DNA from: Clostridia bacterium
GTDB taxonomy: Bacteria > Bacillota > Clostridia > UBA1212 > UBA1255
DNA: 64,000 nucleotides
Assembly (NCBI GenBank): GCA_017560765.1
Contig: JAFZEI010000015.1
Span: 397-64,396, forward strand
Reading direction: 5' to 3'
The position numbers and the translations under genes were made by a program. Each line of letters opens with the position of its first letter. Position 1 is the first letter of the stretch. Positions 1,138-25,612 of this stretch are shown one piece after another. The notes under the pieces are model-generated. The model was not told the origin of the DNA, made no database searches, and saw only the letters and a list, made by a program, of their open reading frames with translations.

Positions 1138-2895
1138 TTACATGGCAGCAATTCTTGCAGCAAGACCTTCGTACTGAGCTTGAAGCTCTGCAGGAAGTTT
1201 CTCAAACTGAGCAAGGTGAGCTTTTTGATCCTCAACTTCTTGCATCCATGACTCTTTGTCAATAGAGAGCAATTCAGCAAGAACTTCTTTAGTAATGCTT
1301 GTGCCTTCAAGATCAATATCTTCAACTTTAGGCAAGTATCCTATAGGAGACTCAACAGCGTCAACTTGATCATTGCAACGAGCAAGAATCCAAAGAAGAA
1401 CTCTGAGGTTGTCACCGAATCCGGGCCAAATGAACTTACCGTTCTCATCTACGCGGAACCAGTTAACATTGAAGATTTTCGGGGGATTAGGTATCTTTTT
1501 ACCCATCTCAAGCCAATGTTGGAAGTATTCTCCCATATTGTATCCGCAGAAAGGACGCATAGCCATAGGATCTCTTCTTACTACGCCAACTGCGCCTGTA
1601 GCTGCAGCTGTTGTCTCAGAAGCCATTGTAGCACCAACGAATACACCATGCTCCCAATCAAATGATTGATATACAAGCGGAGCAACTTTTGCACGACGAC
1701 CACCGAATACGATAGCTGAAATCGGAACGCCTGCAGGATTCTCCCACTCAGAAGAGATGCAAGGACACTGACAAGCAGGTGCTGTAAATCTTGAGTTAGG
1801 ATGAGCACCCTTTGTTCCCATATCAGGAGTCCACTCATTACCCTTCCAGTCAATTGCCTTTGCAGGAGCGTCAACGCCCATGCTCTCCCACCATACATTC
1901 TTATCAGGAGTGATAACAACGTTTGTGAAGATTGTATTTTTCTGACATGTAAGGAGCGCGTTGGGGTTAGATTTCATACTTGTTCCCGGAGCAACACCGA
2001 AGAAACCTGCCTCGGGGTTAACTGCCCAAAGTCTGCCGTCTGCGCCTATTCTAAGCCAAGCGATGTCATCGCCCACTGTCCAAACTTTATATCCCATAGC
2101 TCTGTATTTCTCAGGAGGAATAAGCATTGCAAGGTTTGTTTTACCGCAAGCACTTGGGAATGCAGCTGAAACGTATTGAATGTCACCCTTAGGACTCTCA
2201 ACGCCGAGGATGAGCATGTGCTCAGCCATCCAACCTTCTTTTCTGCCGAGCCAGCTTGCTATACGAAGAGCGAAGCATTTTTTACCGAGAAGAACGTTAC
2301 CGCCGTAACCTGAACCGATTGACCAGATTGCATTATCCTCGGGGAAGTGACAGATATATCTCTTCTCAGGATCAATCTCGCCTTTTGAATGGAGACCTTT
2401 AATGAAATTAGGTGAATCGCCAAGCATATCCATAGCAATTTTACCCATTCTTGTCATAATTCTCATGTTCAATACAACATAGATACTGTCTGTAATCTCA
2501 ATACCAACTTTGCTGAACTCTGAGAAAGCAGGTCCCATAATGTAAGGGATAACATACATTGTTCTACCCTTCATGCTGCCCTCAAAAAGTGTACCTAATT
2601 TTGCATAAGCTGCACTCTTTTCCATCCAATTGTTAATCGGGCCTGCGTCTTCTTTGTGTTCTGTGCAGATGAATGTAAGATGCTCTACTCTGGCAACGTC
2701 ATTTTCTGCTGTTCTATGATATAAACAACCGGGGAGTTTTTCTTGATCTAATTCAATCATCTCACCTGTTGAAAGAGCTTGCTTTGTTAATCTTTCACGC
2801 TCTTCTTCTGAACCGTCAATCCATACTATAGAATCCGGCTGGGTCATTTTTGCCATCTGTTCAACCCATTCGTTAACGTAAACGTTGTTATACAT
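1138..2895 (-). CDS. pck: Phosphoenolpyruvate carboxykinase (GTP)
   Basis: 585 aa with full-length resemblance to GTP-type PEPCK. Motifs include FPSACGKTNLAML (P-loop), GSGYGGNVLLGKKCFALRIAS and VNWFRVDENGKFIWPGFGDN. Confidence 0.95.
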   Translation of the reverse strand: MYNNVYVNEWVEQMAKMTQPDSIVWIDGSEEERERLTKQALSTGEMIELDQEKLPGCLYHRTAENDVARVEHLTFICTEHKEDAGPINNWMEKSAAYAKLGTLFEGSMKGRTMYVIPYIMGPAFSEFSKVGIEITDSIYVVLNMRIMTRMGKIAMDMLGDSPNFIKGLHSKGEIDPEKRYICHFPEDNAIWSIGSGYGGNVLLGKKCFALRIASWLGRKEGWMAEHMLILGVESPKGDIQYVSAAFPSACGKTNLAMLIPPEKYRAMGYKVWTVGDDIAWLRIGADGRLWAVNPEAGFFGVAPGTSMKSNPNALLTCQKNTIFTNVVITPDKNVWWESMGVDAPAKAIDWKGNEWTPDMGTKGAHPNSRFTAPACQCPCISSEWENPAGVPISAIVFGGRRAKVAPLVYQSFDWEHGVFVGATMASETTAAATGAVGVVRRDPMAMRPFCGYNMGEYFQHWLEMGKKIPNPPKIFNVNWFRVDENGKFIWPGFGDNLRVLLWILARCNDQVDAVESPIGYLPKVEDIDLEGTSITKEVLAELLSIDKESWMQEVEDQKAHLAQFEKLPAELQAQYEGLAARIAAM

Positions 2896-2981
2896 GTTCC
2901 TGTCCTTCTTTCTGTTTCATTTACTCTCATAAAAGCTTTTTATAAAGCTTTCTTGCGAAATTCTATTAGCTCGCAACATAT

Positions 2982-3009
2982 ATTATACTCAAAACGAAGA
3001 TTTGTGCAA
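2982..3009 (-). promoter_or_regulatory. Candidate sigma-A promoter of pck, straddling the rsmA stop codon
   Basis: Minus strand reads TTGCAC (3009-3004), N16, TATAAT (2987-2982). Two hairpins (TTGCGA/TCGCAA at 2953-2976 and AAAGCTTT/AAAGCTTT at 2932-2951) lie downstream, in what would be the pck 5' UTR and the rsmA 3' end. Confidence 0.45.
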
Positions 3010-3870
3010 CAATAAATTTGAAAGCTGTCCAAATTCCTCCGGAGAAAGCACTTCTCCCCGTATTCCTGAGCTTTTTCCAATTTCTTCTATGCATTTCACT
3101 GCAGTTTCACGCGTAATTCCCAGATATTGTGCATTTGCTAAAGAGTTTGCCAGCATTTTTCGTCTTTGACAAAAAGCAGCACGCACAACTTTAAAAAAGT
3201 ACTCTTGATCGTTCAATTCAAAAGGCGGCTTCTCGCGAAGCTTCAACGTAATAACCGCCGAGTCCACATTCGGTTGCGGTATAAAACAATGCGGCGGCAC
3301 AATAAATTCTATTTCCGGTTCGGAAAAATATCCCACCGTTACGGTAAGAGCACCATAATCCTTGCCACCGGGCTTTGCAGTCATTCTTTTGGCTACTTCT
3401 TTTTGCACCATAAACGTCATAGAGCGAAGCTGCGGCATCTTATTCTCCAAAAAAGAAAAAATAATAGGTGTTGTAATGTAATACGGCAAATTTGCTACTA
3501 CCTTTACATTTTTTAATTTACCGTCAGACTCCTCTATTTTCTGTGCTACTATTTCTCTTATATTCACTTTAAGAATATCATCGTTAATAAGCTCAATATT
3601 GTTGTGCATATCGCATACAGCCTTCAAAGGCGGTATAAGATTTTTATCAATCTCAACAGCAATAACAAGCCCGGCCTCATTAGCCAGTAAATCGGTCATC
3701 ACTCCCAATCCCGGTCCAACTTCTACAACAATATCCTCTTCTGTCAAATTCGCAGAATAAACAATTTCCTGAACAACTGAAATGTCGTTCAGGAAATTTT
3801 GTCCCAGACTTTTTGAAGGCTTTATGCCGAAAAAATTCATACGATCCTTTGTATTAAACTTCTGATCCAT
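2989..3870 (-). CDS. rsmA: 16S rRNA (adenine1518/1519-N6)-dimethyltransferase
   Basis: KSLGQNFL, VVEVGPGLGVMT (SAM motif) and ANLPYYITTPI. Length 293 aa. Confidence 0.95.
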   Translation of the reverse strand: MDQKFNTKDRMNFFGIKPSKSLGQNFLNDISVVQEIVYSANLTEEDIVVEVGPGLGVMTDLLANEAGLVIAVEIDKNLIPPLKAVCDMHNNIELINDDILKVNIREIVAQKIEESDGKLKNVKVVANLPYYITTPIIFSFLENKMPQLRSMTFMVQKEVAKRMTAKPGGKDYGALTVTVGYFSEPEIEFIVPPHCFIPQPNVDSAVITLKLREKPPFELNDQEYFFKVVRAAFCQRRKMLANSLANAQYLGITRETAVKCIEEIGKSSGIRGEVLSPEEFGQLSNLLLHKSSF

Positions 3871-3903
3871 TTATTAGCCTCACTAATTTACTTTTTATTC
3901 TTT

Positions 3904-5061
3904 TTAACCTCTTAGGGCAAAAACATCCACACTTTGATCCTCAAGAACATAAACCGTTACATCACGAATACCAAAACGATTACAATCATCTTCGCTCTCC
4001 ATGAACAAATCAACTCTCATATTCTTAATTGATCCGCCCACATCCCATGCAATGCAATATCCGTAATCCGGTATACCTGCAACATTACTTTTTATATAAA
4101 GCTTTGTACCAAGAGGAATAACTCTTGTATCGACTGCCACAACACCCTCTCTTGCCCTGTTTCCGGAAGCTGTTGAATAACCCCAATTTTCAGGTGTAGG
4201 TGAATAAGCAGTAGCTACCATATCAAAAACCTTTGAATAACTGTCGTTAAAACCTCTGTTTGTTGTAAAAGAAACCTTCGTTCCCACTGCAACAACCTTA
4301 TTTACAGGCTGTGTCTTGACTTCTGAAATCAATTCTCTGGAAACTTCCTTGCCGTCTTCATATTTTACGGAATACTTTCTTGTAACAGAACCATTCTGAC
4401 CTTGAACCGCAACCTCCGACTCACCTTTATATAAAGTCGAATCCTCTACATAAACCGTCTCATACGGAATATCGGCTTTCTCTTCTACTACCTTTGTAGA
4501 TACAATCACAACGGTAATCGCATCACCGTCAGAAGCAGTCCCGTCTTGATTACCACCGTGAATTACATCGGAACCGTCAACCTTTATGCCGTTTTCCGTA
4601 AGGGCGTCCGAAATATTATCTGTATAAGTTTTGATAATTTTCTCTTCTCCGGCCATTGTAACAAGAAGTGTAATCGGTCTGGAGACGGAAATAACATCAT
4701 TTACATTATCCAAATTGCAAGTAAGGTCATAATTTATCTTATCATCTGTTGCAAGAACAATACCTGCATCCTTAATAGCCTCCGAAACTGTTTCCGCACG
4801 AGTAGTTATTTCGTAAAGCTCCCCGTCTACACTGACTGTAACTGTTCTGAAATCTTTTGTAAAAAGACATACAGCCAAACAAATAGAAACAGCCATTACG
4901 CCACAGAGGATGCCCATATATTTAACCAAACCTAAAGATTTTTTTATCGCTATGATTTGCTTTCGAATACTAATACAAATCGCTCCAATCTGTTTTTTCT
5001 TTTCGCAAGCTTTTATCTTGTTGCAAAATTTCCCAACGCGCCCTACCTCCGGCAGAGTCAC
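3904..5061 (-). CDS. YabE-like cell-wall protein (TM anchor, DUF348-like repeats, G5 domain, 3D domain)
   Basis: TM segment MGILCGVMAVSICLAVCLF, G5-like YKGESEVAVQGQNGSVTRKY and C-terminal 3D-like VAVDTRVIPLGTKLYI...WDVGGSIKNMRVDLF. The start is uncertain. GTG at 5061 has no SD and sits about 5 nt from the predicted TSS, so ATG at 4917 is an alternative. Confidence 0.8.
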   Translation of the reverse strand: MTLPEVGRVGKFCNKIKACEKKKQIGAICISIRKQIIAIKKSLGLVKYMGILCGVMAVSICLAVCLFTKDFRTVTVSVDGELYEITTRAETVSEAIKDAGIVLATDDKINYDLTCNLDNVNDVISVSRPITLLVTMAGEEKIIKTYTDNISDALTENGIKVDGSDVIHGGNQDGTASDGDAITVVIVSTKVVEEKADIPYETVYVEDSTLYKGESEVAVQGQNGSVTRKYSVKYEDGKEVSRELISEVKTQPVNKVVAVGTKVSFTTNRGFNDSYSKVFDMVATAYSPTPENWGYSTASGNRAREGVVAVDTRVIPLGTKLYIKSNVAGIPDYGYCIAWDVGGSIKNMRVDLFMESEDDCNRFGIRDVTVYVLEDQSVDVFALRG

Positions 5062-5071
5062 GTATGCTACA

Positions 5072-5101
5072 ATTTTAGTATAAAAACGGGAATAGTGTCA
5101 A
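5072..5101 (-). promoter_or_regulatory. Candidate sigma-A promoter for yabE-like/rsmA
   Basis: Minus strand reads TTGACA (5101-5096), N18, TAAAAT (5077-5072). Confidence 0.5.
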
Positions 5102-5179
5102 CTTTTTATCTCTGTTTTGCAAAATTTCATGCATGATGCTCGCAACTTATACAAAAAAGCCTGTGGAAAAACCTATTTT

Positions 5180-5977
5180 TTAGTGCAATTTGCCAAAAAC
5201 TCTCAAAGCATTGTCTGTTGTTAACTCACAAATATATTCATAAGAAACATCAAGAATTTCTGCCATTCGTCTTGCCGTGTATACTGTATACGACGAATCG
5301 TTTCTTTTTCCTCTATATGGCACAGGAGTCAAATACGGGCTGTCCGTTTCAATAAGTATGCGTTCTCTTGGCATCACTTTCACAGCCTCTGCCAATTTAA
5401 CTGCATTTTTAAAAGTCAGTACTCCTCCCACTGAGAAACTCATATTAAGCTCCGCAAAATCTCTTACCATCTCTGCACTGCCGGAATAGCAATGTAATAC
5501 ATTTTCCACTTGACCGGACACATTATCTTTAAGAATATTAAGAGTATCTTGATGTGCATCCCTGTCGTGCACCACTAAAGGCAGCCTCAAGCTTTCCGAC
5601 ATACGTATATGCTCAATAAAATTAACTTTTTGCAAAGCCTTTAATCTAAGCACCTCATCAGGCTTGTCCTTAGGGAGCCAATAATAATCAAGCCCCGTTT
5701 CGCCAATACCTACCGCTTTCGGTTCGTTTTCTATAAGATTACTTATTTTGCCCAGAACCTCAGATGAATATGTTTCCGCATACTCCGGATGAATTCCCAA
5801 CACACAATAAACATTATCAAATTTCTTTGCAAGCTCTATGGATTTTACCGAGGTCTCATAATCGACGGCAGCATTTATTACATATCCTATACCCGCCTCT
5901 TTTACTCTTTCCAGGCAACTGTTTAAATCTTCTGAAAACGCATTATCATCATAATGCGCATGAACATCAATAATCAT
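5180..5977 (-). CDS. tatD: TatD-family metal-dependent hydrolase/DNase
   Basis: MIIDVHAHYDD, VVHDRDAH and ETDSPYLTPVPYRGKRN. It has the conserved position next to yabE/rsmA, as in Bacillus yabD. Confidence 0.9.
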   Translation of the reverse strand: MIIDVHAHYDDNAFSEDLNSCLERVKEAGIGYVINAAVDYETSVKSIELAKKFDNVYCVLGIHPEYAETYSSEVLGKISNLIENEPKAVGIGETGLDYYWLPKDKPDEVLRLKALQKVNFIEHIRMSESLRLPLVVHDRDAHQDTLNILKDNVSGQVENVLHCYSGSAEMVRDFAELNMSFSVGGVLTFKNAVKLAEAVKVMPRERILIETDSPYLTPVPYRGKRNDSSYTVYTARRMAEILDVSYEYICELTTDNALRVFGKLH

Positions 5978-6006
5978 GCGAAATCACCGTTCCCCTTTAT
6001 ATTATA

Positions 6007-6792
6007 TTATTTAATGATACATTGTATACCTTCCGTTCCCTCCGGCAGAATGCTTCGTATGCAATATGTACCATCAGTATCACGGGCGCATTCAATCTTA
6101 ACGCTTCTGTTTGATTCAGGCTTTGCTATATATTCTGCAAAAGAAATTTCATGCTTGTATTTAATATCAATTACAGAAATACTGTTCCCCTCTGCAAAAA
6201 ATTCTATCGGCAAAGCTTCCTCAGCCCACTCCACGTATTTTGCATTATTTACATGTCTGTTATAGTCAAAATCAGCATACGACGGAATTCTCGTGCGCTC
6301 TCCCACTTTTGAAACATCAAAAACTTCAGGTGAATACATAGCACCCTTTGGCATTGCAAAAGGTTCCTCTTTCGAGATAATCTCCGGGAATGCAATATTA
6401 CATTCCGAAGGTCTTAAAACAGAACGCTTAGATACATCAAACAAGGCCCACTGTGAAACAGCGCTGCCATAAACATTTCCTTTTAAATCCTCAACTGTAA
6501 AATAACGAGTAAAAATAACTTTCATGTTCTTGTTGGGCCAAGTTCTGATAACGATTTCCTCTCCGGCTCCCGGATGCCTTTGCATCTCAAAACGCATACG
6601 CGACAAAATATAACAAGCATTATACTTTTTCATTAGGTCGCCCCAGCCGCAGCCAAATTCAACACATTGAGCATTGGCAGTATCTTGCACAATTGCAAAA
6701 ACGGCAGACATTTTTATCTTGTTATTCATATCTACATCACGAGCAACTATCTGTCTTATTTCTGAATAAGTACCATCAGCATTCTGTCCCAC
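6007..6792 (-). CDS. Acyl-ACP thioesterase
   Basis: 261 aa double hot-dog type. Motifs are RDVDMNNKIKMSAVFAIVQDTA and DFDYNRHVNNAKYVEW. The GTG start has AGGAAG 7 nt upstream. Confidence 0.8.
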   Translation of the reverse strand: MGQNADGTYSEIRQIVARDVDMNNKIKMSAVFAIVQDTANAQCVEFGCGWGDLMKKYNACYILSRMRFEMQRHPGAGEEIVIRTWPNKNMKVIFTRYFTVEDLKGNVYGSAVSQWALFDVSKRSVLRPSECNIAFPEIISKEEPFAMPKGAMYSPEVFDVSKVGERTRIPSYADFDYNRHVNNAKYVEWAEEALPIEFFAEGNSISVIDIKYKHEISFAEYIAKPESNRSVKIECARDTDGTYCIRSILPEGTEGIQCIIK

Positions 6793-6866
6793 AAAAACAC
6801 TTCCTTCTCATAAACCAAAAAACTTCATCTCCGATAAAACAGAGACGAAGTAAAAAATACTCGATT

Positions 6867-6895
6867 ATGATACCCTAAAAATTTTTTCATGTCAA
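6867..6895 (-). promoter_or_regulatory. Candidate sigma-A promoter for thioesterase/tatD
   Basis: Minus strand reads TTGACA (6895-6890), N17, TATCAT (6872-6867). Confidence 0.55.
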
Positions 6896-6922
6896 CGTGT
6901 AAGGAGCAACAGCCTGCCTTTT

Positions 6923-9130
6923 TCAGATTAATATCTTATGCACTTTTCCGTCATCTTCCAATTTTATTGTTTTGCATCCTTTTGATTTTACAGTAATGAT
7001 ATATACAGAATTTTTATATTTATATTCTATTGTATATTCCTTCCACTCATCCGGAATGTTTGCGTTCAATACTATTTCTGCTTTACCCTTAATTTCACTG
7101 TTTTTCACTGTAAATCCCAAAATATCTTCAAGAATCACCTGATACAGCCATGAGGACGAACCTGTATACCAAGTCCAACCGCCGCGACCAATATTTTCAT
7201 CGCTGTAAATATCTGCTGCAACAGCATAAGGTTCCGTTTTATAACGCGCAACTTCCAATTCTGTCCTGGTATGATTTATAGGGTTTATTACATCTACCAT
7301 ACGTCTTCCTTTTTTAGCAAAATCATCTCCCATTTTAAGAAATGCTTTTGCCAACCAAACTGCCCCATGGGTGTATTGTGCACCATTCTCACGTATTCCG
7401 GCAGGATATGACGCAATATAACCCACATCTTCAATAGAATCAGCAGAAAAAGGAGGCGTGAGCAGCTTTATTATTCCGTTGTTATAATCTGCCAAAAAGC
7501 GTTCCGCAGACAAAAGAGCAGTCTTGCACCTTTCTTTATTTCCAAAGCCGCTTAACACTGCCCATGATTGAGCTATGGAGTCTATCATACATTCTCCCGA
7601 ACGGTGGCTGCCTAAAACCCTCCCGTTATCACAAAACGCACGAATATACCAATTGCCATCCCAAGCATGTTTTTCTATGGCATCGGCAATTTTTTTTGTT
7701 TCCGTTTGCAATCTATGCCTGTCTACCTTTGCAGATTGAGACAGAAGCGACATTTTATCCAAGGCCTTTAGGCAATAACATAAGAACCAGCCGAGCCAGA
7801 CACTTTCGCCTTTACCTTGAATGCCCACGCGGTTCATTCCGTCGTTCCAATCACCGCCCATTATAAGCGGAATACCATGTTCTCCGTATCTCATTGCGTG
7901 CCTGCATGCCAACAGGCAATGGGAAAACAGACTCTCGCTTTTTTCAGATACCTCAGGTATCTCATATCTGTCAATTTCGTTAAAATCAAGAGATTTACTC
8001 TTAATATACGGTACTTTTATATCAAGAATCCCACTGTCTCCCGTAACTTCTATATAGCGAAAAGTCACGTAAACGAGCCACAGTAAATCGTCGCTGTATC
8101 TGCTGCGTATACCTGCATTTTCCGGAGGATGCCACCAATGTTGTACATCGCCTTCCTCATACTGTCTTGAGGCATGCAGTAAAATGCGCTCTTTAACTTT
8201 CTGCGGGTCTGTACATAAAAGGGCAAGGCTGTCTTGAAGTTGGTCTCTAAAACCATAAGCACCGCCGCATTGATAAAAAGCAGTTCTGCCATTTAAGCGG
8301 CAACTAACAGTTTGGTACAAAAGCCAACCGTTCATCATAACATTTATGCTCTTTTCCGGCGTAGTTATGCGAATTCGTCCTAAATATTCTGACCAATAAT
8401 CTTTTACTTTTTCAAGCGCCTCACTGCATGCTTCATATCTGGTATATTCTTGTAAAACAGTCTTATTGTCTGACAGTAGCAAAACACCTTTCCATGTATC
8501 ACCTTTAGAAACAGCCTTTCGTATATTTTCCGCCGAGGAATACATCTCGTGCCTGTATGGTGTTTCAACGGAATACTTTAGAGACAATTTCTTTTCTTTC
8601 TCCGACGTAATTTCAAAAAGCGTTATTTTAACACCTTTGTTTATTGGTACAAATGTTGTAAAACACCACTCTATTCCGTTATATTCTCCTTTAAAGGATG
8701 AATATCCATAGCCATGATGTGTTATGCAATTTGAAAAAGGAGAAATGGAATTTTCTCCTTCTTCTGTAAATTCTGTAATTTCTATACGTTCATCAGATAA
8801 ATCCTCCAGAGGATCGCAATACCAGCGAGTTATAGGATTTTCTCTGCTGTTTCCATGCCAAACGTAACCTCCGCCTTTTTCTGAAATAATAAAGCCAAAC
8901 GGTTCTCCTTCAGCAGCAGAGATGCAATTAATCCAAGGTACAGGAGGACTTTTATATATAATATATTCTCCTGACGATGTATCAAAACCACCAAATCCAT
9001 TGTTAAATTCCAAATTACCGTAATTAAAATTCCTTTTCACAAGCAGCACTCCCAATTTTTTATCATAGCCAAAAGACAAGATTTGATGCTTCAATGATTG
9101 GTGCAGCTCCGTTACTGTCTTTAGGCACAA
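6923..9130 (-). CDS. GH94 (cellobiose/cyclic-glucan phosphorylase-like) domain protein; C-terminal part of a cyclic beta-1,2-glucan synthase in a separate frame
   Basis: EFNNGFGGFDTSSGEYIIY (GH94 N-terminal signature), RYSDDLLWL and GGDWNDGMNRVG...GESVWLGWF (catalytic region). The track start at 9130 is a TTG. GTG at 9040 has GGAG 8 nt upstream and lies 23 nt after the upstream stop. Confidence 0.85.
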   Translation of the reverse strand: MCLKTVTELHQSLKHQILSFGYDKKLGVLLVKRNFNYGNLEFNNGFGGFDTSSGEYIIYKSPPVPWINCISAAEGEPFGFIISEKGGGYVWHGNSRENPITRWYCDPLEDLSDERIEITEFTEEGENSISPFSNCITHHGYGYSSFKGEYNGIEWCFTTFVPINKGVKITLFEITSEKEKKLSLKYSVETPYRHEMYSSAENIRKAVSKGDTWKGVLLLSDNKTVLQEYTRYEACSEALEKVKDYWSEYLGRIRITTPEKSINVMMNGWLLYQTVSCRLNGRTAFYQCGGAYGFRDQLQDSLALLCTDPQKVKERILLHASRQYEEGDVQHWWHPPENAGIRSRYSDDLLWLVYVTFRYIEVTGDSGILDIKVPYIKSKSLDFNEIDRYEIPEVSEKSESLFSHCLLACRHAMRYGEHGIPLIMGGDWNDGMNRVGIQGKGESVWLGWFLCYCLKALDKMSLLSQSAKVDRHRLQTETKKIADAIEKHAWDGNWYIRAFCDNGRVLGSHRSGECMIDSIAQSWAVLSGFGNKERCKTALLSAERFLADYNNGIIKLLTPPFSADSIEDVGYIASYPAGIRENGAQYTHGAVWLAKAFLKMGDDFAKKGRRMVDVINPINHTRTELEVARYKTEPYAVAADIYSDENIGRGGWTWYTGSSSWLYQVILEDILGFTVKNSEIKGKAEIVLNANIPDEWKEYTIEYKYKNSVYIITVKSKGCKTIKLEDDGKVHKILI

Positions 9131-12100
9131 TTACAAAAATATCGCCTCTTACAGGGAAACATCCCCACATAGCTCTTTGCACAAGAGAATCGGCCAACTC
9201 GTGTATCGGACTTACATAGTCTGAATTGTCAAAGACTGCTAAAACCATATCAAGTTTTATACCTCTGAAACTATAATAGCACCACATTCTTACTAATCTT
9301 TCAAGTCTTACAGCATTTTCGACTTTGCGTATCAAAACAGTAATTATAGGATTGTCGCCTGAAATACCGTAGCCCCATAAATGCTTTTTTGTTTTATCGT
9401 CATAATATTTTCTGCCGTAAAGTAATTTAGAAGCATAACTTCTGAAAAATTGCATATCTCCTTTTCTAAAAGAAATATGTTCTTTTTCTATGAGGCAACG
9501 CGTCCTTGCCAATTCAAAAATACGTTGTGTGTTGGCAAAACTGTTAATTTCTGTAAAAGCAGTCTCTTTATTCTGATTCATGCCCATAACAAGCGAAAAA
9601 ACTGCATTTTCTCCGGCTTCGACACGCAACTTAAGATTTACTGCAAAGCATGGATTTAAAACGGTTCCAGCTATGCCTGATAACAAAAAGTCAGAACTAC
9701 CGTTTCTTCCCTTAAAAGAAAGTACATCAGTGTCATACATTATTGATTCCACCTGTTTTTTGCTTTCAGAAGAAACATCCACATAAAAGTAACTTTCCAC
9801 ATGATTATCCGTCGGCTTATGCTTTCGCCTTGTTGCCAAAAGGCAAACACTTGAGCTTTCTGTCTTTACAGCTTTCGTGGTAATAAACATTCCCGAATAA
9901 GAAGGATGCGCCGCATACGAAGCAGGATAGTCCATCATAAGTCTGCAATACAATGTTATGTTTTCATACAGCTCATTTTTCCCTTTGTTTGTAATTTTAA
10001 AAATACGAACTTCTGCGTTATCTTCCGTTGCTACACATATACTTTGTGTTACTTCCTCTTGTTTTGTAAGGTAGAGATATTCACCGCTCCCGGAATAAAC
10101 AGTACATTTTACAGGTTTCATCATTTCACCATTTAAATAAAACACAATACCCTCAGGTAAAATTTGTTCTCTGTGAACATCAATGCCCATCCCGCATAGG
10201 GAAGAATAGCTGTTTCCCTGACCGTTGATTACCACACTGTATTTACCATTTGACAGTACATGAGCATCGTGTCCGGAAATGCAAACGTACTGTTCCTGCT
10301 GTTTTTCTTCACCTGAAGGTTCTTTACGGACAAGCTCATTTTTCGTCTTTGAAGCGTGTTTTTTAAATGCTTTTTTAGGGAACTTTTCTGTAAGCATTAC
10401 TTTAACCGGTTGCATCATTGCCATGTCGCTCAAGCCTTTTGATACCATTTCGTCAAAAAGCAAGTTTGCAATGCCGCATAAAGCCATACCCACATGATGT
10501 GCCATAAAACTTTCTACAATGCCTTTTCTTCCCGGAGTAAAGTCAATTGCCTCGTAATAACCATATTTTCCCTCTGTTCCCAATCGTGACAACAGCTCCA
10601 TATTACTGAATACTGCTTGTGGCGTAATGCTGCTTGCCATTAGACTTGCATAAGGTGCTACAACTGCATCGTCATTATGCATTCTCTTGACTGCCAAAGA
10701 TTTTAGGCCAAAAGCTTTGTATTTATAATTCATATTTATATCAAGCGCATTATAACCTGATTCTGAAATACCCCAAGGTTTATCTCCCGCAAGACTTTGC
10801 TGAATTTCCAGCATTTCATAAATCGATTTATTTAAAGCCGAACCGCAAGGCGACGGCACAAACAATTCAGGCAATACATATTCAAAAACAGTTCCGGACC
10901 AAGAAAGAAGCACATTGCCATCTTCATTACATCTGCGTGCAAGAGCAGAAAAGTGTTCCGCCTCCACATCACCCTTTGCCATGGCCACATAAGAAGTCAG
11001 CCGCGCCTCCGACATAATCATATCATAAAAAGAATTTGAAAATTCCCCCGTACTGTAATTATAACCTATACATAAATGCCTATGCTTATCGTTATACAGA
11101 ATGCCAAAATCCATTGCCAAAGCCATATTTTTCATTCTGGCTGCCAGAATTTTTTTATCCTCATATAAATTAAAAACACCTTGTGTAATATTTTTTTCTG
11201 CATTAACAAGCATTTCTTTCAAATTACAGCGAAAAGAATGGGCGTCTGCCTTTTCGTTCTTTACAGGCGCAACAAGCTCTTTATAATATTGTATTACTCT
11301 CAGAAATTCTTCTTTTGTATAATTATCTTTATTTAAGAATTCTTCTAAAACCCATATTTCTGCTGTATTTCCTTTTTCTGCAAATTCGTTTAAACAACAT
11401 ACTGTATCGTACAGACCTTCAGCAGATTTTTTTATATAATCTTCTGTTGTCTCCACTTCATTTATTGAATTTATCAGTGAAGACGCTGCCAACAGGCAAG
11501 CAGCAAGATTGCCGCTGTCTACACAAGAAACGTATTTTGGTTCCAGAACCTGCAAAGACATTGTGTCATACCAATTAAAAATATGCCCGTTCCACTTGTC
11601 CATTCTGTCTAAGGTATTCATAATTTTTTCTAAACGAACAAGCATTTCTCCTTGAGATATATAACCGAAGTGTTGTGCAATTACAGTAGAAACTATCAAA
11701 AAACCAATATTTGTAGGAGATGTTCTGTGGGCTACCGAATACACCGGCGAAAATTGCACATTGTCAGGGGGCAGAAAATTATCGCTTTCTACGGCATAAT
11801 CGTAATAAAAAGCCCATATTTTTCTTGCATTAATACGAAATTTCTTTATTTGAAGCTTTGTAAGTTTTTTAGATTTATTTCCGTATCTTTGTTTAATTGT
11901 TTTTTTAGAACAAACATAAGCTCCCCACGGTCCTAAAATCCACAATACACTTGGAATTCCAAACAAAAAAGGCGCCATAACAGCTGCCGAAGCAAAATTT
12001 ATCCACATTGTTCTGTTATAGTAAGCTAATGTATTTTGTATGCTTTTGTCAGCATCAGAGGAAACAACCCATTCCAGCATTTTCTGTCTGCTGCGAAAAG

Positions 12101-14543
12101 TTCTCCACACCGCACGTATCATACCATCTGCATGAACAAGGAAAGTGTGTGGAAGCAGTATAAAATTGCTTAGTACTCGCATGATTCTTGGTACGAATCT
12201 ACCTCCCGATGTGATTAACAGTGTACCTGTAACGATAAAAACCCATAAAAAGGCATCACGGCGAAGAAAAAGCATTCCTATCACAAAAACCATAAAAAGA
12301 GCTACAGGCAACAAACTTCTTAATAAATTCATTCCGATTTTAAAACGCGAGTAAAAATTAAGAGGATTATTTTTTAATACACCTTTTTCGTTTTCAAATC
12401 TTTTTCCCAAAAAAGGAAGTAACTGCCAATCTCCTCTTATCCACCTATGCTCTCTTTTAATATATCCACCGTAGCTGCGGGGAAAACTGTCATATAAATG
12501 AACATCCGAAACAAATGCAGTTCTTACAAAGGAACCTTCCAAAAGGTCGTGGCTTAATATACTGTTTCTTTTAAATCTCCCATCAAGAACACCATTGAAA
12601 ACATAAGGATCATACATGCCCTTTCCCGTATATATTCCCTCTGCGCAAACATCAAAATAAAAATCTGATGTTTTGCATCCGTATGAATCAAATCCCACTT
12701 CATCACTGTAAATTTTTTCAAAAATTGTTGTATTTTCTCTGTCGAGTCCTGATGGGGATATTGCAGGCTGCAAAAGCCCGTAACCCTTTGTCACCACGGG
12801 TTCACCTTTTACATAACTTATCTGCGGACGGTTTAAAGGATGATACATAATTTGCGCCATTTTGACAGCCGTATTTATTGGAATTACTGAGTCCGCATCT
12901 ACTGTCAGCACATAATTCACTTTTGGCAACTCACCTTTAATAATTGCTCTGTTAAGCTCAATAAGTGCACCTCTTTTTCTCTCATACCCCATCCATTTAT
13001 TGTCTTCTTTATAAAAATCTCTTTCCCTGACAAGTATACAAAAACGTTCACCTAACTTTTCTGTTTCTGTCTTTGCATACTGAATGAGTTCCCTGTCTTC
13101 CGGTGTGGTTTTTGTGGTACTTTCAGGTAAATCTGCCAACAAAGTATACCAAATCCCCTCTTGAGGATTTGCCCAATATGCCGCCTCCAATTGCTTAATC
13201 ATTTCGTCTACTCGTTTTTTTGAGGTTATCATACATGGCAAAACTATCATAATTTTACAATCCTCAGGTAATTTACCATGAAATTCCATTTCCGGCAGCG
13301 AAAACGGCATCTTCCTGTCCGTGTACATTTTCTGTATCAATGACAAAGAAATATTCATTGACGCAATTAATATAAGCAAAACGCAAAAGGCTCCTAAAAA
13401 TATTCCGAATATACCGTAAAGTTCCATAGAAAGCCCATACGCATAAACTCCGGGGCAAAAGGCCAAAACGGCAGAAGTAAACAAGAACATAACAAAAAAA
13501 GAGCCAAAGTCATTATGCTTTGTATAGTCCTCATATATAAAATCCCCTACATGAGCCTGCCGGTTTTGAGCCTTTTCCAATACTTCCAATGCATATTTTT
13601 CGGGAGAGGTATGTTTGCGTTTTGCACATACTTGTACAATACGCAAATATTCACGTCTTGACTTGGATGTCATTTTGTTAAAAATTCCCGTGGGATCTTT
13701 GCGTAAAATCTGCTCTGTAACACAAAGCTCAGACATAATTTTATCCCAATCCAGTGACGGCAAATCCCTTAGACTTTTTATGGCATTTCCCATAGAAACA
13801 CCTAATGAAATTCTCGTTCTGTGTTCTCTTTCTATCAGCTCTTCAACCGTTGTTCCTTTTGCTGCCAGCTTACCGGAAAGAGCAGTTCTTATTGTGTCAT
13901 TCTGTTCTAATTCAGCAGACAACCGAAGTACAGTTTCGGCAAAAACAGGCGTTATCATATCTGCATTATCAAACAAAACAGCTGCACTTCTCATGCGCTG
14001 CCCATTTTCCGTAGTGTAAGAAGAAAACTCTCTGAAAATTTTCTCGGCTGTTTTTCTGTCTTTGTATATTTTATCCGAAATTTTACAAATTTCTGCAATT
14101 CTCTTAATAAGTGCCACTTGTAGCATACATGGCAAAAACGTAAGAGACTCGGTATCTATTGGTCTTATTTTTTCATACGACGTTACAAAATCCAATATTT
14201 CCCGCTGCCCAATGCAGCCATCTGTATGCGAAGCAATTTCCGCCGCCAAATCATAAACAGGTAAAATTTTACGACTGTATTCTTCGTTTTTTACACTTTC
14301 GGCAGCCTCATTTACAACATGATAATTGTCAGCTATCCACTCGTCCGACGGAATACTTTGCAATTTTTGCGTATTTTCGCCATCTGACATAATTCTGCTG
14401 TATGTTTCATCTATACTTCCACTGCATTTTTCTATTGACGGAATGCTCCTTACGCCGTATCTGCCTTGCAAATGCTTTTCTCCGATATTTGCAGCATGCT
14501 TTATATATTCTTTTCCCGTTAATAATGTATCCTCAAGAATCAT
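9063..14543 (-). CDS. Cyclic beta-1,2-glucan synthase, N-terminal 1826 aa (N-terminal region, GT84-like glycosyltransferase, TM segments, glucoamylase-like/cyclization region)
   Basis: WIADNYHVVNE, WMGYERKRGALIELN, LTVDADS, GYGLLQPAI, SHDLLEGSF, REHRWIRGDWQLLPFL, SPTNIGFLIV, NWYDT...VDSGNLAACLLA and GISESGYNA. This is the same order as in Cgs/ChvB/NdvB. Confidence 0.85.
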   Translation of the reverse strand: MILEDTLLTGKEYIKHAANIGEKHLQGRYGVRSIPSIEKCSGSIDETYSRIMSDGENTQKLQSIPSDEWIADNYHVVNEAAESVKNEEYSRKILPVYDLAAEIASHTDGCIGQREILDFVTSYEKIRPIDTESLTFLPCMLQVALIKRIAEICKISDKIYKDRKTAEKIFREFSSYTTENGQRMRSAAVLFDNADMITPVFAETVLRLSAELEQNDTIRTALSGKLAAKGTTVEELIEREHRTRISLGVSMGNAIKSLRDLPSLDWDKIMSELCVTEQILRKDPTGIFNKMTSKSRREYLRIVQVCAKRKHTSPEKYALEVLEKAQNRQAHVGDFIYEDYTKHNDFGSFFVMFLFTSAVLAFCPGVYAYGLSMELYGIFGIFLGAFCVLLILIASMNISLSLIQKMYTDRKMPFSLPEMEFHGKLPEDCKIMIVLPCMITSKKRVDEMIKQLEAAYWANPQEGIWYTLLADLPESTTKTTPEDRELIQYAKTETEKLGERFCILVRERDFYKEDNKWMGYERKRGALIELNRAIIKGELPKVNYVLTVDADSVIPINTAVKMAQIMYHPLNRPQISYVKGEPVVTKGYGLLQPAISPSGLDRENTTIFEKIYSDEVGFDSYGCKTSDFYFDVCAEGIYTGKGMYDPYVFNGVLDGRFKRNSILSHDLLEGSFVRTAFVSDVHLYDSFPRSYGGYIKREHRWIRGDWQLLPFLGKRFENEKGVLKNNPLNFYSRFKIGMNLLRSLLPVALFMVFVIGMLFLRRDAFLWVFIVTGTLLITSGGRFVPRIMRVLSNFILLPHTFLVHADGMIRAVWRTFRSRQKMLEWVVSSDADKSIQNTLAYYNRTMWINFASAAVMAPFLFGIPSVLWILGPWGAYVCSKKTIKQRYGNKSKKLTKLQIKKFRINARKIWAFYYDYAVESDNFLPPDNVQFSPVYSVAHRTSPTNIGFLIVSTVIAQHFGYISQGEMLVRLEKIMNTLDRMDKWNGHIFNWYDTMSLQVLEPKYVSCVDSGNLAACLLAASSLINSINEVETTEDYIKKSAEGLYDTVCCLNEFAEKGNTAEIWVLEEFLNKDNYTKEEFLRVIQYYKELVAPVKNEKADAHSFRCNLKEMLVNAEKNITQGVFNLYEDKKILAARMKNMALAMDFGILYNDKHRHLCIGYNYSTGEFSNSFYDMIMSEARLTSYVAMAKGDVEAEHFSALARRCNEDGNVLLSWSGTVFEYVLPELFVPSPCGSALNKSIYEMLEIQQSLAGDKPWGISESGYNALDINMNYKYKAFGLKSLAVKRMHNDDAVVAPYASLMASSITPQAVFSNMELLSRLGTEGKYGYYEAIDFTPGRKGIVESFMAHHVGMALCGIANLLFDEMVSKGLSDMAMMQPVKVMLTEKFPKKAFKKHASKTKNELVRKEPSGEEKQQEQYVCISGHDAHVLSNGKYSVVINGQGNSYSSLCGMGIDVHREQILPEGIVFYLNGEMMKPVKCTVYSGSGEYLYLTKQEEVTQSICVATEDNAEVRIFKITNKGKNELYENITLYCRLMMDYPASYAAHPSYSGMFITTKAVKTESSSVCLLATRRKHKPTDNHVESYFYVDVSSESKKQVESIMYDTDVLSFKGRNGSSDFLLSGIAGTVLNPCFAVNLKLRVEAGENAVFSLVMGMNQNKETAFTEINSFANTQRIFELARTRCLIEKEHISFRKGDMQFFRSYASKLLYGRKYYDDKTKKHLWGYGISGDNPIITVLIRKVENAVRLERLVRMWCYYSFRGIKLDMVLAVFDNSDYVSPIHELADSLVQRAMWGCFPVRGDIFVIVPKDSNGAAPIIEASNLVFWL

Positions 14544-14600
14544 TTCACAACTACACCTCGTTGCTTTATTATTCGCAAGGAAGGTAAATTTTATACAAAT

Positions 14601-15392
14601 TCAGACCTTTTTCAATCTGGAATAATCGCCCTCTCTCATTGTGCAATAAATTCTGGATGGATCAAGCTCCCAGCCGTTTCCTGTATTCCTGTTTAGCAGT
14701 TCATCAACAGTTACAAAACGATATCCTTTTTCTTTTAAAATATCCATGGCTCTGAATGCTGTTTCTATAGATGTTTCATAATTATCATGGAGTAAAACAA
14801 TATCTCCGTCAAAAGTGTTTTCAACTATTGTTTTTACCATTTTATCTATATTTCTGCATTGCCAATCACGAGTATCATAATATCCCCAGCAAACAGTTAT
14901 CATGGGTGCTGCTATATTTCTCACCCAAGGAGCAGTCAATGCGCTGCCTCCCGGTGGTCTCATATATTTAGTCTCCTGACCTGTTATTTCTTTTATAAGT
15001 TCATTTGTTTTTTTTAGCTCATAATCAACTTTTTCATGTGTTGATTTGCTGAGCCAACAATGAGAATACGAATGATTTGCAACAGTATGTCCCTCTCTTG
15101 CCATACGTGCAACAAGCTCTCTGCCTTTTGCAATCTCCCAATCCTCATATTTACCGGATTTATAATCCAATCTTTCACCTACAACAAAAAAAGTTGCTTT
15201 TGCATCTCTTTCGGCCAAACCATCCAAAAGCTTTTTTGTATATATGGGATTTGGCCCGTCATCAAACGTAAAAGCGACCATGGGCTTTATTCCCTCTCCG
15301 TTATCTGCTTTTACATAAACAGGAAAGAAAAGCGACAATACAATTACTAACCAAATTATAAAAATTGTTTCTATAAGATACACTTTGCGCAT
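14601..15392 (-). CDS. Membrane-anchored polysaccharide deacetylase (CE4/NodB domain)
   Basis: N-terminal TM segment, FTFDDGP, HSYSH and LLHD motifs. Length 263 aa. Confidence 0.9.
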   Translation of the reverse strand: MRKVYLIETIFIIWLVIVLSLFFPVYVKADNGEGIKPMVAFTFDDGPNPIYTKKLLDGLAERDAKATFFVVGERLDYKSGKYEDWEIAKGRELVARMAREGHTVANHSYSHCWLSKSTHEKVDYELKKTNELIKEITGQETKYMRPPGGSALTAPWVRNIAAPMITVCWGYYDTRDWQCRNIDKMVKTIVENTFDGDIVLLHDNYETSIETAFRAMDILKEKGYRFVTVDELLNRNTGNGWELDPSRIYCTMREGDYSRLKKV

Positions 15393-17400: not shown

Positions 17401-18582
17401 TTACGAAATAATTTCTGCAGAAATTTTTTTGCAAGAGAGCTTTTCGCAAGGTTCCCAAATCTGCTTTTCTGCCATAAGAGCTCTGATTTTTTGTATGATA
17501 TCGTTTTCTTCATTATTACACCATAAATATCTGTCAAAGCCTGCAATATACTCTATCATTGCTTCTTTGTTATCTCCGTCTACAAGTACAAGCACAGGTC
17601 TGTTAGTAGCAGCATAATGATAAAGCTTTCCCGGTATTTGCGTGCCTTTTTTATTAAGAACGCAAATATATAAATCAGTTTTCTTTTCAAGCTCACTTAT
17701 ATCGCCTCTTGGAAAAACATTTATATTATCTGTTTTTTCAAGTGCAAAATCTGCTTTTCCCATAACATTCAATATCAATTCATTCTTCATGCCGTTACAA
17801 GCATTATACAAAGGCATAATATCTCTGTTATTCGAAAAATAATCTCCGTAATAACCTACAGTAAATATATTATTTTTTGTTTCACGATAAATCTTCGTTT
17901 CGATGAACGGAGTAGGCACAAATATCATTTTGTTTGCAAACTCCGGTTGTATTCTCTGCTCTTCTTGTAGTGTGAACGGTGATGTATAAACAATTTTATC
18001 TGCCTTTGAAAAGAGCTTTTTTTCTTCTCTTTTTATTGCTTTTTTAGTGTATATTGTTTTTGATGCTGAGATATCTCCTACCAAAGGGTCTCCCCAATAC
18101 TGTATCCACTTTTTATAAGTTAAACCTTGCTCAACTAATTTTGCCATAGCTATATGGCTTGTCTTTGGATCGGAATCTGACATCACATACTCATATTCTT
18201 TTGACGGAAGTTTTTCTATAGAAACTTTTTTTGCGATATCATGTGTAAAATCGTAAAGTGTTGTATAATGATACAATTTTCTTGCTATTTTAAATAGTTT
18301 ATGTTTTATACCGCCTTTTGAACCGCTAAGCATTCCGTATACTGCTTGATTTGCACCGCCGTTTTTTTCTTCATCTGCATAAATTATATTGACTTGCTCC
18401 ATAAAACCATAGCCGGACAAATCCTTTAATACTATATTTGAATTTGCATGAATGCAGAACAAATCTACTTCATATCCGTTCTCAACGAATCCCTTTATTA
18501 CAGCCAATGTTCTAATCATGGATGATGAAGAAGCATTTGGTGCTGCCATTTTTACTACGAGAATTTTTTTGTTATTTTTCAT
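17401..18582 (-). CDS. GT-B-fold glycosyltransferase (family not assignable by eye)
   Basis: 393 aa. Two Rossmann-like halves, with C-terminal QIPGKLYHYAATNRPVLVL resembling GT4-type donor-binding helices. Confidence 0.55.
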   Translation of the reverse strand: MKNNKKILVVKMAAPNASSSSMIRTLAVIKGFVENGYEVDLFCIHANSNIVLKDLSGYGFMEQVNIIYADEEKNGGANQAVYGMLSGSKGGIKHKLFKIARKLYHYTTLYDFTHDIAKKVSIEKLPSKEYEYVMSDSDPKTSHIAMAKLVEQGLTYKKWIQYWGDPLVGDISASKTIYTKKAIKREEKKLFSKADKIVYTSPFTLQEEQRIQPEFANKMIFVPTPFIETKIYRETKNNIFTVGYYGDYFSNNRDIMPLYNACNGMKNELILNVMGKADFALEKTDNINVFPRGDISELEKKTDLYICVLNKKGTQIPGKLYHYAATNRPVLVLVDGDNKEAMIEYIAGFDRYLWCNNEENDIIQKIRALMAEKQIWEPCEKLSCKKISAEIIS

Positions 18583-24715: not shown

Positions 24716-25612
24716 TTAATACTTTATTCTAACGTAAATTTTAGCCAGCAAGCGTCTGGTACAAGCCAACATGTATCTCAAATATTGAAATACGCACACT
24801 TTTTTATCAAATACATACGAAACGATATTTACGCTTACTCCGCAATCCATAAGCTTTTTGTTCTTATTGTTATACTTAGTTCGTGAAAAAACCGTCATCC
24901 CGCTTTCTGAATATTTTTCAATTTCACCGGGAAACTTTTCTGTATACATAAACGGATATGAAATAAATAAAACACTGTTCTCTTTTAAAAACGATATTAC
25001 AGCATCAACATCATTTTCTCCCATATTGTATTCATATCTGGCACAATATATCCCTTTATATCCTAATTTTGAAACTATCGCTACAGTTTCTGTAGTATAT
25101 GCTTCTATCAGAAATCTTTCTTTTAATTCTGTTTTTTCTCCTATACACAACGAAAGTACATCAAGGAAATTCAAAATCTGTTCCTCTGTAAACATTCCGA
25201 ATAAATCGAGCATAAAAACAGTATCATTATACTCTGATAGCATATCAATAATATTTTGTAAGGATATAGGAGTAAGTCCCTTTGTGGATAAAGAAAAAAG
25301 AGTCTGTTTCATAAACCAGTCAAAGTCATATACATTGGGCTTTTCAAAAACCTCCATACGTCTCATTGACTTTTCATCAACAGTATGAGCAACGGCAACA
25401 TATTTGTTGTCAGTTGTTTTTCCGATGTCAAATTCAAAAACCTTAACACCTTTTTTATACCAACGCAAAAATGCCTCTTTTGTATTGGTTTGTCTTACAC
25501 CGGCAAAAGCACCGAGACCGTGCATACAATAATTAAATTTACCTTTTAATTCATGAACTGTCATCGTATTAAAGTTTTGCTGCCTCTGCAATTGCCAAAT
25601 CGTTTTCATCAT
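24716..25612 (-). CDS. GDPD/PI-PLC-like phosphodiesterase-fold protein
   Basis: HGLGAF...NTKEAF...VKVFEFDIGKTTDNKYVAVAH resembles the H-R/G, E-x-D and H-D pattern of glycerophosphodiester phosphodiesterases. The start is uncertain (ATG 25612/25609 or ATG 25564). Confidence 0.45.
   Translation of the reverse strand: MMKTIWQLQRQQNFNTMTVHELKGKFNYCMHGLGAFAGVRQTNTKEAFLRWYKKGVKVFEFDIGKTTDNKYVAVAHTVDEKSMRRMEVFEKPNVYDFDWFMKQTLFSLSTKGLTPISLQNIIDMLSEYNDTVFMLDLFGMFTEEQILNFLDVLSLCIGEKTELKERFLIEAYTTETVAIVSKLGYKGIYCARYEYNMGENDVDAVISFLKENSVLFISYPFMYTEKFPGEIEKYSESGMTVFSRTKYNNKNKKLMDCGVSVNIVSYVFDKKVCVFQYLRYMLACTRRLLAKIYVRIKY

Follow-up and report, generated by a model that had tools for sequence, protein, structure and literature searches.

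A predicted cyclic β-1,2-glucan synthase encoded by two adjacent genes in uncultured Clostridia

The analyses presented here indicate that a cyclic β-1,2-glucan synthase (Cgs) of an uncultured Clostridia bacterium is very probably encoded naturally by two genes, whose products would reassemble into an architecture like that of the single-chain enzymes. The pair lies in a 64,000-nt stretch of contig JAFZEI010000015.1 (hereafter, the window). An earlier note on this DNA had assigned it to the Cgs/ChvB/NdvB type and had offered a frameshift or assembly error, a phase-variable switch, a pseudogene and a two-subunit enzyme as explanations of its division into two open reading frames (ORFs). Both ORFs were found where the note had placed them and, taken at maximal length, they overlap at 9063-9130 in different frames (ORF2 counted from its first possible start covers 6923..9130 on the minus strand, 735 aa). 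All the sequence motifs that it quoted were present in the translations. The NCBI annotation also comprises two genes and starts ORF2 at the GTG at 9040, which gives 705 aa and a combined length of 2531 aa for the pair. The coordinates of all features are collected in Table 1.

The assignment to the Cgs family was fully supported by homology. In phmmer searches, residues 50-1785 of ORF1 aligned with residues 75-1949 of the Agrobacterium tumefaciens Cgs (AtCgs, 8rf0_A; E=6e-209) and ORF2 aligned with residues 2041-2806 of the same chain (E=4e-151), the next best matches of ORF2 being free-standing GH94 phosphorylases (E ~1e-58). Pfam detected Glycoamylase and a GH94 supersandwich (PF06165, residues 1427-1654, E=9e-19) on ORF1, and a second PF06165 supersandwich together with the GH94 catalytic domain (PF17167, 359 bits) on ORF2. 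These domain calls, a check that the note had proposed, confirmed a Cgs-like make-up but not a GH94 region restricted to ORF2. Overall, ORF1 is predicted to consist of an N-terminal domain, the GT84 glycosyltransferase, transmembrane helices, a GH189 cyclase, GP1 (the Ndom1 of 1,2-β-oligoglucan phosphorylase, SOGP) and a Rossmann-fold-like insert (RFL), while ORF2 would contain the β-sandwich GP2 (Ndom2), a helical linker, the (α/α)6 catalytic barrel and a C-terminal β domain.

Residues known to be critical were then located in the alignments. Within the GT84 region, VDADS (548-552), SHDLLEG (D666) and RWIRGDW (700-706) of ORF1 matched D624/D626, D739 and the RW motif of AtCgs, and Y621 (GFDSY) fell, in an ungapped block, on the priming Y694 (GIDPY, IF1-homology loop). 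In AtCgs, D624/D626, Y694 and D739 are essential, and six transmembrane helices flank the glycosyltransferase domain (PMC10901819). A Kyte-Doolittle scan of ORF1 gave four clear hydrophobic stretches at positions matching those of AtCgs, one of which could accommodate two helices, while the same scan detected no such segment in ORF2. As for the cyclase, IMSEAR, TVFEY, WGISESG and FMAHH of ORF1 aligned with E1356, E1400, E1442 and H1536/H1537 of the Thermoanaerobacter italicus enzyme (TiCGS), all of them conserved; E1356 is the acid/base and E1442 the nucleophile of the TiCGS cyclization domain (PMC10834661). On ORF2, GFRDQLQD and GDWND aligned with D2393 and with the catalytic acid D2528 of AtCgs, and both motifs were invariant in the ORF2 family. 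According to these alignments, every catalytic and priming residue tested is conserved across ORF1 and ORF2.

Alignment places the cut between the two genes at the RFL/GP2 boundary, which lies within the phosphorylase region rather than where that region begins, because ORF1 carries PF06165 at 1427-1654 followed by about 170 further residues that align with the RFL (residues 1847-2012 in the AtCgs domain map; PMC10901819). ORF1 therefore extends through GP1 and the RFL equivalent, and residue 7 of ORF2 aligns with residue 2041 of AtCgs. The earlier proposal of a split exactly at the GH94 boundary was right in that ORF2 begins where free-standing GH94 enzymes begin, its residue 16 (FGGFD) aligning with residue 3-4 of cellobiose and chitobiose phosphorylases, but it overlooked that GP1 remains on ORF1. 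The AlphaFold2 (AF2) model of ORF2 had a pTM of 0.85 and TM-scores of 0.81 to 8rf0 and of 0.71-0.76 to whole cellobiose or chitobiose phosphorylase chains. Given this fold match and the end-to-end alignment, ORF2 is predicted to represent one complete canonical GH94 phosphorylase polypeptide.

We examined how the junction is built and whether it is conserved. The coding strand reads ...AAT CTT GTC TTT TGG CTA TGA TAA AAAATT GGGAG TGCTGCTT GTG AAA AGG..., so that ORF1 ends in ...NLVFWL at a TGA-TAA double stop. The GTG at 9040, which the note had already singled out, starts 22 nt past this double stop, and the Shine-Dalgarno sequence that precedes it by 8 nt is GGGAG. The exact 1826-aa ORF1 protein occurred on at least six contigs from independent samples, and the complete members listed in its 90% cluster were all 1826 aa long. 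Three contigs were 99.93-99.97% identical to the window over the 7621 nt of the pair, with 2-5 single-nucleotide differences, no gaps and an identical junction. The junction and its run of four T (T4) were identical in L085, L086, L087 and L093, which together with the window make five assemblies, L093 belonging to a different collection.

The same layout was present in more distant relatives. Besides the window, the clade comprises seven lineages, which are listed here with the identity of their ORF2 to that of the window, the lengths of ORF1 and ORF2 and the spacer: L088 (91%; ORF1 partial, 706 aa; 24 nt), L002 (73%; 1855 and 703 aa; 11 nt), L004 (63%; 1862 and 724 aa; 50 nt), L005, a UMGS-series metagenome-assembled genome (MAG) (62%; ~1869 and ~718 aa; 17 nt), L001 (60%; 1826 and 722 aa; 30 nt), L090 (49%; 1824 and 733 aa; 9 nt) and L089 (45%; 1698 and 697 aa; 10 nt). 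When the junction was aligned with these orthologues, as the note had suggested, they proved to be split at the same residue. ORF1 ended in ...N[LVMI]VFW[LM]-stop throughout the clade except in L089, where SDIYYQL-stop stood at the same aligned site. The codons of the FW pair varied synonymously (TTT or TTC TGG), so the T4 run itself is not conserved. The spacers (9-50 nt) contained a purine-rich ribosome-binding site, and the start codon stood 4-9 residues before a conserved LxFxNGxGGF.

A second group of split genes, formed by Anaerocolumna aminovalerica DSM 1283 (L071) and L091, brings the number of split loci to ten. In L071, a 2070-aa protein ending in ...ELLEEY-stop is followed by AAGGAGG, a TTG start and an 810-aa protein, and in L091 the proteins have 2015 and 817 aa; the cut lies in the same linker, part of which both proteins retain. 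Across the ten loci, ORF2 was in frame 0 relative to ORF1 in four (L088, L001, L090 and L091, where stop codons part the ORFs), in frame +1 in two and in frame +2 in four, and in 5/10 the frame of ORF2 was closed before reaching ORF1. All ten had their own start codon for ORF2, and all but L091 a clear Shine-Dalgarno-like run. Since the relative frame varies and the frame of ORF2 is often closed, what the loci conserve is not a frameshift but a stop codon followed by a ribosome-binding site and a start codon.

Selection on both genes is strongly purifying. The dN/dS of ORF2 was 0.073 between the window and L088 (dS 0.58), and both ORFs gave 0.09-0.10 (ORF1, 0.09) between the window and L002, a comparison in which dS is saturated. 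The 172 C-terminal residues of ORF1 gave 0.13. The value of 0.35 obtained with the ORF1 fragment of L088 is unreliable and was not used, the first 238 nt of this short contig being unalignable to the window.

ORF1 and ORF2 would be co-transcribed and co-translated, with the ribosome-binding site and GTG of ORF2 serving for its separate initiation, and, by analogy with characterised enzymes, the two proteins would reassemble non-covalently into the architecture of a single-chain Cgs. In dimeric GH94 enzymes, the barrel of each chain forms its pocket with the N-terminal domain of the partner chain, and in the monomeric LpSOGP a duplicated Ndom1 replaces that partner domain and contributes two helices to the pocket (PMC5309861). 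GP1-GP3 of Cgs have been described as resembling LpSOGP (PMC10901819). Because the split leaves Ndom1/GP1 to ORF1 and assigns Ndom2 and the barrel to ORF2, formation of the pocket would require docking of the two proteins, with GP1 of ORF1 set in trans against the barrel of ORF2 as in the dimeric enzymes. Such a complex would polymerise UDP-glucose on a tyrosine-linked primer, trim the length of the glucan chain by phosphorolysis, cyclise it and release cyclic β-1,2-glucan. Truncation of the C-terminal region abolishes the function of AtCgs even though its phosphorylase catalytic acid is nearly dispensable (PMC10901819), which suggests that ORF2 is needed at least structurally. Of the two-subunit option in the earlier note, the two separate genes are borne out by comparative data, and the complex is what we infer from these precedents.

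Several observations weigh against this mechanism. The near-dispensability of the catalytic acid in AtCgs means that selection on ORF2 could reflect a structural or an independent role. ORF2 resembles free-standing GH94 enzymes and could in principle homodimerise, and the window itself comes from the MAG of an uncultured organism. Modelling residues 1396-1826 of ORF1 joined to ORF2 with AF2 as a single sequence yielded an unusable model (mean pLDDT 31). In addition, no Cgt/ChvA-type exporter gene was seen in the window or beside the pair in related loci with listed genes.

Two variants of the functional reading were considered. We find it unlikely that ORF2 docks reversibly on the synthase, so that its amount tunes chain length and perhaps switches the enzyme from elongation to cyclisation, with free ORF2 possibly recycling glucan as a dimer; if so, fission would have replaced a fixed pocket within one chain by a regulated pocket between two proteins. 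Somewhat less probable still is that ORF2 works alone, probably as a homodimer, and is a free-standing GH94 phosphorylase for the degradation or recycling of β-1,2-glucooligosaccharides, with ORF1 as the whole synthase and the adjacency merely operonic. ORF2 does span a canonical GH94 chain and shares its modelled fold with the dimeric phosphorylases of cellobiose and chitobiose, and the weak dependence of AtCgs on its phosphorylase acid would fit such a division of labour. However, ORF2 is far closer to the phosphorylase region of Cgs than to free-standing GH94 enzymes by the E-values given above, it lies directly 3′ of ORF1 at 9-50 nt in 10/10 loci, and the AtCgs truncation argues for a requirement in synthesis. 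Moreover, the pocket-forming helices of SOGP and Cgs are on Ndom1 and not on Ndom2, and Ndom1 stays on ORF1.

A genome-wide scan retrieved 80 loci. The distant relatives were nearly all single ORFs of 2545-3150 aa, with identities of 35-49% in the GH94 part and 25-30% in ORF1, and they spanned many phyla, with Clostridium, Caloramator and Paenibacillus among the genera represented. The premise of the earlier note that Cgs is unusual in Gram-positive bacteria is therefore weak, single-chain Cgs being common in these three genera. No close fused relative was found among 1.84 billion cluster representatives, where the best single-chain match was 53% identical (P0021, 2802 aa) and the cluster of the window itself is represented by a 703-aa protein (P0004). 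A protein homologue search, run twice, returned each time only proteins of up to ~1050 aa; its outcome, in which all homologues had ~700 aa, is length-biased, and we relied instead on the cluster-representative search, on the genome scan with our own open-frame analysis and on contig look-ups. Four single-chain Cgs (L015, L016, L020 and L032) were unusually short, 2544-2578 aa, near the total of the split pair. Their sources were uncultured-bacterium MAGs (one with an hRUG isolate name), Muribaculaceae and Bacilli, and they grouped with the split clade in 7-20% of bootstraps.

Stand-alone ORFs of about 1280-1355 aa that, like SOGP, joined GP1 to the GH94 unit on a single polypeptide were also detected. 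Those at L014, L052, L072 and L082 (1278-1355 aa) came from Proteobacteria and Verrucomicrobiota MAGs, and L052 and L082 fell among full-length Cgs in the tree, a position hinting that the phosphorylase module was released from Cgs more than once.

In neighbor-joining (NJ) trees, which were midpoint-rooted so that the direction of change is not formally proven, the eight split sequences of the window type formed one clade in 100/100 bootstraps, for the GH94 half and the synthase half alike. This clade grouped with the Anaerocolumna type in 61% (GH94 half) and 21% (synthase half) of bootstraps, and by ORF1 distance the Anaerocolumna type was nearest to fused clostridial Cgs. We favour fission of a fused gene over a two-gene form surviving from before the fusion, since fused forms are widespread over many phyla and SOGPs hold Ndom1 and Ndom2 in one chain. 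The ancestral alternative, which would also be compatible with a two-subunit function, draws on the basal position of the split clade, which is not nested in fused sequences, and on the fact that ORF2 begins where free-standing GH94 enzymes naturally begin. We consider it improbable, as the split forms with a named source all come from Clostridia-type organisms and the position of the Anaerocolumna type suggests that fission happens at this linker.

The comparative data also bear on whether a full-length fusion is made by programmed recoding, either +1 frameshifting or stop read-through, besides or instead of two proteins. The ORF2 of the window does have a +1 frame that is open for 30 codons 5′ of its start and overlaps the end of ORF1. 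We nevertheless regard recoding as very improbable, since no slippery site is conserved, the relative frame differs among relatives and the frame of ORF2 is closed before the end of ORF1 in half of the loci. Furthermore, the window carries a double stop, L001 has a second in-frame stop directly before the ATG, and ORF2 has its own start codon at every locus. A comparison with prfB-like programmed frameshift genes likewise failed, with frames of 0, +1 and +2 and no conserved shift site.

A sequencing or assembly error that broke a single 2539-aa gene at the homopolymer was the alternative that the earlier note had put first. Homopolymer errors are common, and we reproduced its observation that removing one A from 9071-9074 restores a single 2539-codon ORF with the junction it quoted. 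Yet the probability of an artefact is close to nil, given that the junction is common to five independent assemblies, that relatives without T4 (TTC TGG) stop at the same residue and that L088, L001, L090 and L091 are in frame with stop codons between the ORFs and hence contain no indel. The peptide created by the deletion, GYDKKLGVLLVKR, had seemed to be the uninterrupted linker of single-chain enzymes. This is a coincidence: in fused relatives, the last RFL strand is separated from GP2 by roughly 30-50 aa, to which the peptide is not homologous, and this stretch is lost in the split clade. Artefact-like frameshifts do exist in Cgs genes of the nanopore MAGs L034 and L056, but those breaks lie at other, arbitrary places, the frames of L034 overlapping by 245 nt and L056 being in several pieces. 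Both are Chloroflexia long-read MAGs, and their broken genes (1605-10581 and 1621-10397, respectively) look like homopolymer or indel artefacts.

As negligible in probability is a recent pseudogene or an on/off switch at the homopolymer, to which the short tract at the frame change had pointed, because the tract has only 4 nt, is invariant in five assemblies and is not conserved in relatives, while dN/dS is 0.07-0.1 for both ORFs with the last 172 aa of ORF1 also constrained, the catalytic residues are invariant and the split reaches lineages only 45% identical. The long, length-varying homopolymer or repeat of phase-variable contingency loci was looked for and not found, T4 being short and constant. 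On comparative, selection and linker data, we therefore reject all four of these alternatives, namely an assembly error, a pseudogene, a phase-variable switch and recoding; as judged from the sequences, this Cgs is encoded naturally by two genes.

Compared with known systems, the pair is a split variant of the Cgs family, neither a canonical member nor a new kind of system. It shares with AtCgs the order of the modules (N-terminal domain, GT84, predicted transmembrane helices, GH189-type cyclase, GP1, RFL, GP2 and GP3), and the residues for priming (Tyr), glycosyl transfer (GT84 aspartates), cyclisation (E/H) and phosphorolysis (aspartates) are kept in ORF1 and ORF2. It differs in being encoded by two genes cut between RFL and GP2 instead of as a single polypeptide, in its total of 2531 aa against ~2800-2900 aa, in having lost the linker of about 40 aa of fused relatives, and in its host, an uncultured Clostridia bacterium, presumably from the gut, with no Cgt/ChvA exporter gene seen near the pair. 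TiCGS is also a Firmicute Cgs, whose cyclization domain matches residues 900-1390 of ORF1 (E=2e-96). That domain (8WY1, from the product of Thit_1831) is the founding member of GH189 and was characterised biochemically in isolation; unlike the window enzyme, TiCGS is numbered as one continuous chain with no mention of a split (PMC10834661).

The phosphorylase half invites two further comparisons. GP1, GP2 and GP3 of Cgs correspond to Ndom1, Ndom2 and the catalytic and β domains of SOGP, with the pocket between Ndom1 and the barrel. SOGP, however, is a soluble monomer without the Rossmann-like insert and with Ndom1 and Ndom2 in one chain, whereas ORF2 lacks Ndom1, which is on ORF1. The dimeric phosphorylases of cellobiose, chitobiose and cellobionic acid (3QDE, 1V7V and 4ZLE) were matched by ORF2 from their residue 3 to the C-terminus; they have the same fold and an intermolecular pocket of the kind proposed here for ORF1 and ORF2. 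In contrast, their identity to ORF2 is ~20%, they are homodimers of one soluble protein, and the partner domain of ORF2 would come from a 208-kDa membrane synthase.

To our knowledge, every Cgs studied to date is one polypeptide of ~300 kDa, which makes the roles of its modules hard to separate. A separate, predicted soluble GH94 unit of 80 kDa would offer a direct handle on what the phosphorylase module contributes to ring size, cyclisation and stability, so that the pair could serve specialists as a natural dissection of that module. It would also be a clean example of a domain-duplicated pseudo-dimer split again into a real heteromer, if the heteromer forms as proposed. No description of a two-gene Cgs was found in the literature searched for split Cgs and Firmicute Cgs, whose coverage was incomplete, so that this is absence of evidence only; nor did the literature searched contain a report on the product or role of β-1,2-glucan in organisms without a periplasm. 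Public MAG records label both proteins as hypothetical. An annotator could mistake the pair for a frameshifted pseudogene, and it stands as a warning against such calls. MAGs of uncultured Clostridia contain Cgs-type genes, and the names of their contigs suggest gut and rumen sources; the ENA contig label XIEF21 presumably refers to a ruminant gut MAG survey.

Table 1. Features of the two-gene Cgs locus in the window (positions of the window; all on the minus strand; domain and subunit names are predictions)
Feature	Position	Strand	Details
ORF1, large membrane subunit	9063..14543	-	1826 aa, ~208 kDa; NCBI MBR5785224.1, 'hypothetical protein'
ORF2, small soluble subunit	6923..9040	-	705 aa, ~80 kDa; NCBI MBR5785223.1, 'hypothetical protein'
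Gene junction	9041..9065	-	TGA 9063-9065, TAA 9060-9062, Shine-Dalgarno GGGAG 9049-9053, 8 nt, GTG; read directly
T4 run, coding strand (TTT TGG = Phe-Trp)	9071..9074	-	shortening would fuse the frames; not a functional element
GT84 region, ~aa 410-730 of ORF1	12354..13316	-	alignment with AtCgs
Transmembrane-like segments of ORF1, flanking GT84	11931..13502	-	Kyte-Doolittle: aa 348-366, 378-396, 740-765, 853-871
GH189 cyclase domain, ~aa 900-1395 of ORF1	10359..11846	-	E=2e-96 to T. italicus CGS cyclization domain 8wy1
GP1, first GH94-type β-supersandwich, aa 1427-1654 (Ndom1 of SOGP)	9582..10265	-	PF06165
RFL-equivalent C-terminal 172 aa of ORF1, ending ...NLVFWL	9066..9581	-	alignment to AtCgs RFL
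GH94 catalytic barrel of ORF2	7115..8398	-	GFRDQLQD aa 263-270, GGDWNDG aa 395-401, catalytic acid D400
Promoter-like site TTGAAA-16-TAAAAT, 5′ of ORF1	14588..14615	-	consensus scan; weak
Terminator-like hairpin, 12-bp stem and T-run, ~70 nt past ORF2 stop	6822..6851	-	weak

Consensus scanning detected no terminator-like site between ORF1 and ORF2. The promoter-like and terminator-like sites of Table 1 are compatible with an operon but are not evidence for one, since the number of sites in the scan equalled the shuffle expectation. Another promoter-like sequence, the near-consensus TTGACA-17-TATCAT, lies between the ORF2 stop and an acyl-ACP thioesterase gene and is followed by the hairpin (6822-6895, minus strand). 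The hairpin at 6822-6851 could be either the terminator of the pair or a leader or attenuator of the thioesterase gene.

The window is Firmicute-type chromosomal DNA, as judged by rpoB, rpoC, rpsL, rpsG, fusA, tuf, PFOR and MecA. A Pfam scan of its ORFs (at least 150 aa, or at least 120 aa below position 30000) revealed no sporulation gene, and nothing in the window shows the organism to be spore-forming, as the earlier note had called it. In the relative L089, spoIVA adjoins the split pair. Scans of the window for tRNA genes and Rfam families gave no match.

The pair sits where a long co-directional Wzx/Wzy-type polysaccharide cluster (14601-34648, minus strand) reaches its downstream end. 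Its genes encode a priming sugar transferase, a DegT aminotransferase, Polysacc_synt_2, two UDP-glucose-type dehydrogenases, a 2-epimerase, a flippase and Wzy, along with a GT2 protein, LicD, a nucleotidyltransferase, an ATP-grasp protein, an SDR and a hexapeptide transferase; the cluster ORFs at 17401-18582 and 24716-25612 had no Pfam match. A CE4 polysaccharide deacetylase gene lies directly 5′ of the pair in the window (14601-15392, minus strand), in L002 (3580-4368) and in L090 (1668-2426), and may be a conserved partner, perhaps in glucan modification, or a case of coincidental synteny. The neighbours in L001, L004 and L089 differ from those in the window, and this variation indicates that the two genes themselves are the conserved unit.

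Other observations concerned genes around these loci. Near the split pair of L089, an MBOAT and DHHW pair (12243-15081) may constitute an O-acylation system, and just 5′ of the split pair of L091 there is an encapsulin gene (Linocin_M18) with an EncFtn-like cargo gene (246-1452 for the two). Finally, the window encodes a 1378-aa protein (50451-54587, minus strand) with a signal-peptide-like N-terminus and Ricin-B lectin repeats, located between rpoC (54732-58439) and rpsL (49846-50268), where it breaks the usually tight rpoBC-rpsL-rpsG-fusA-tuf order.

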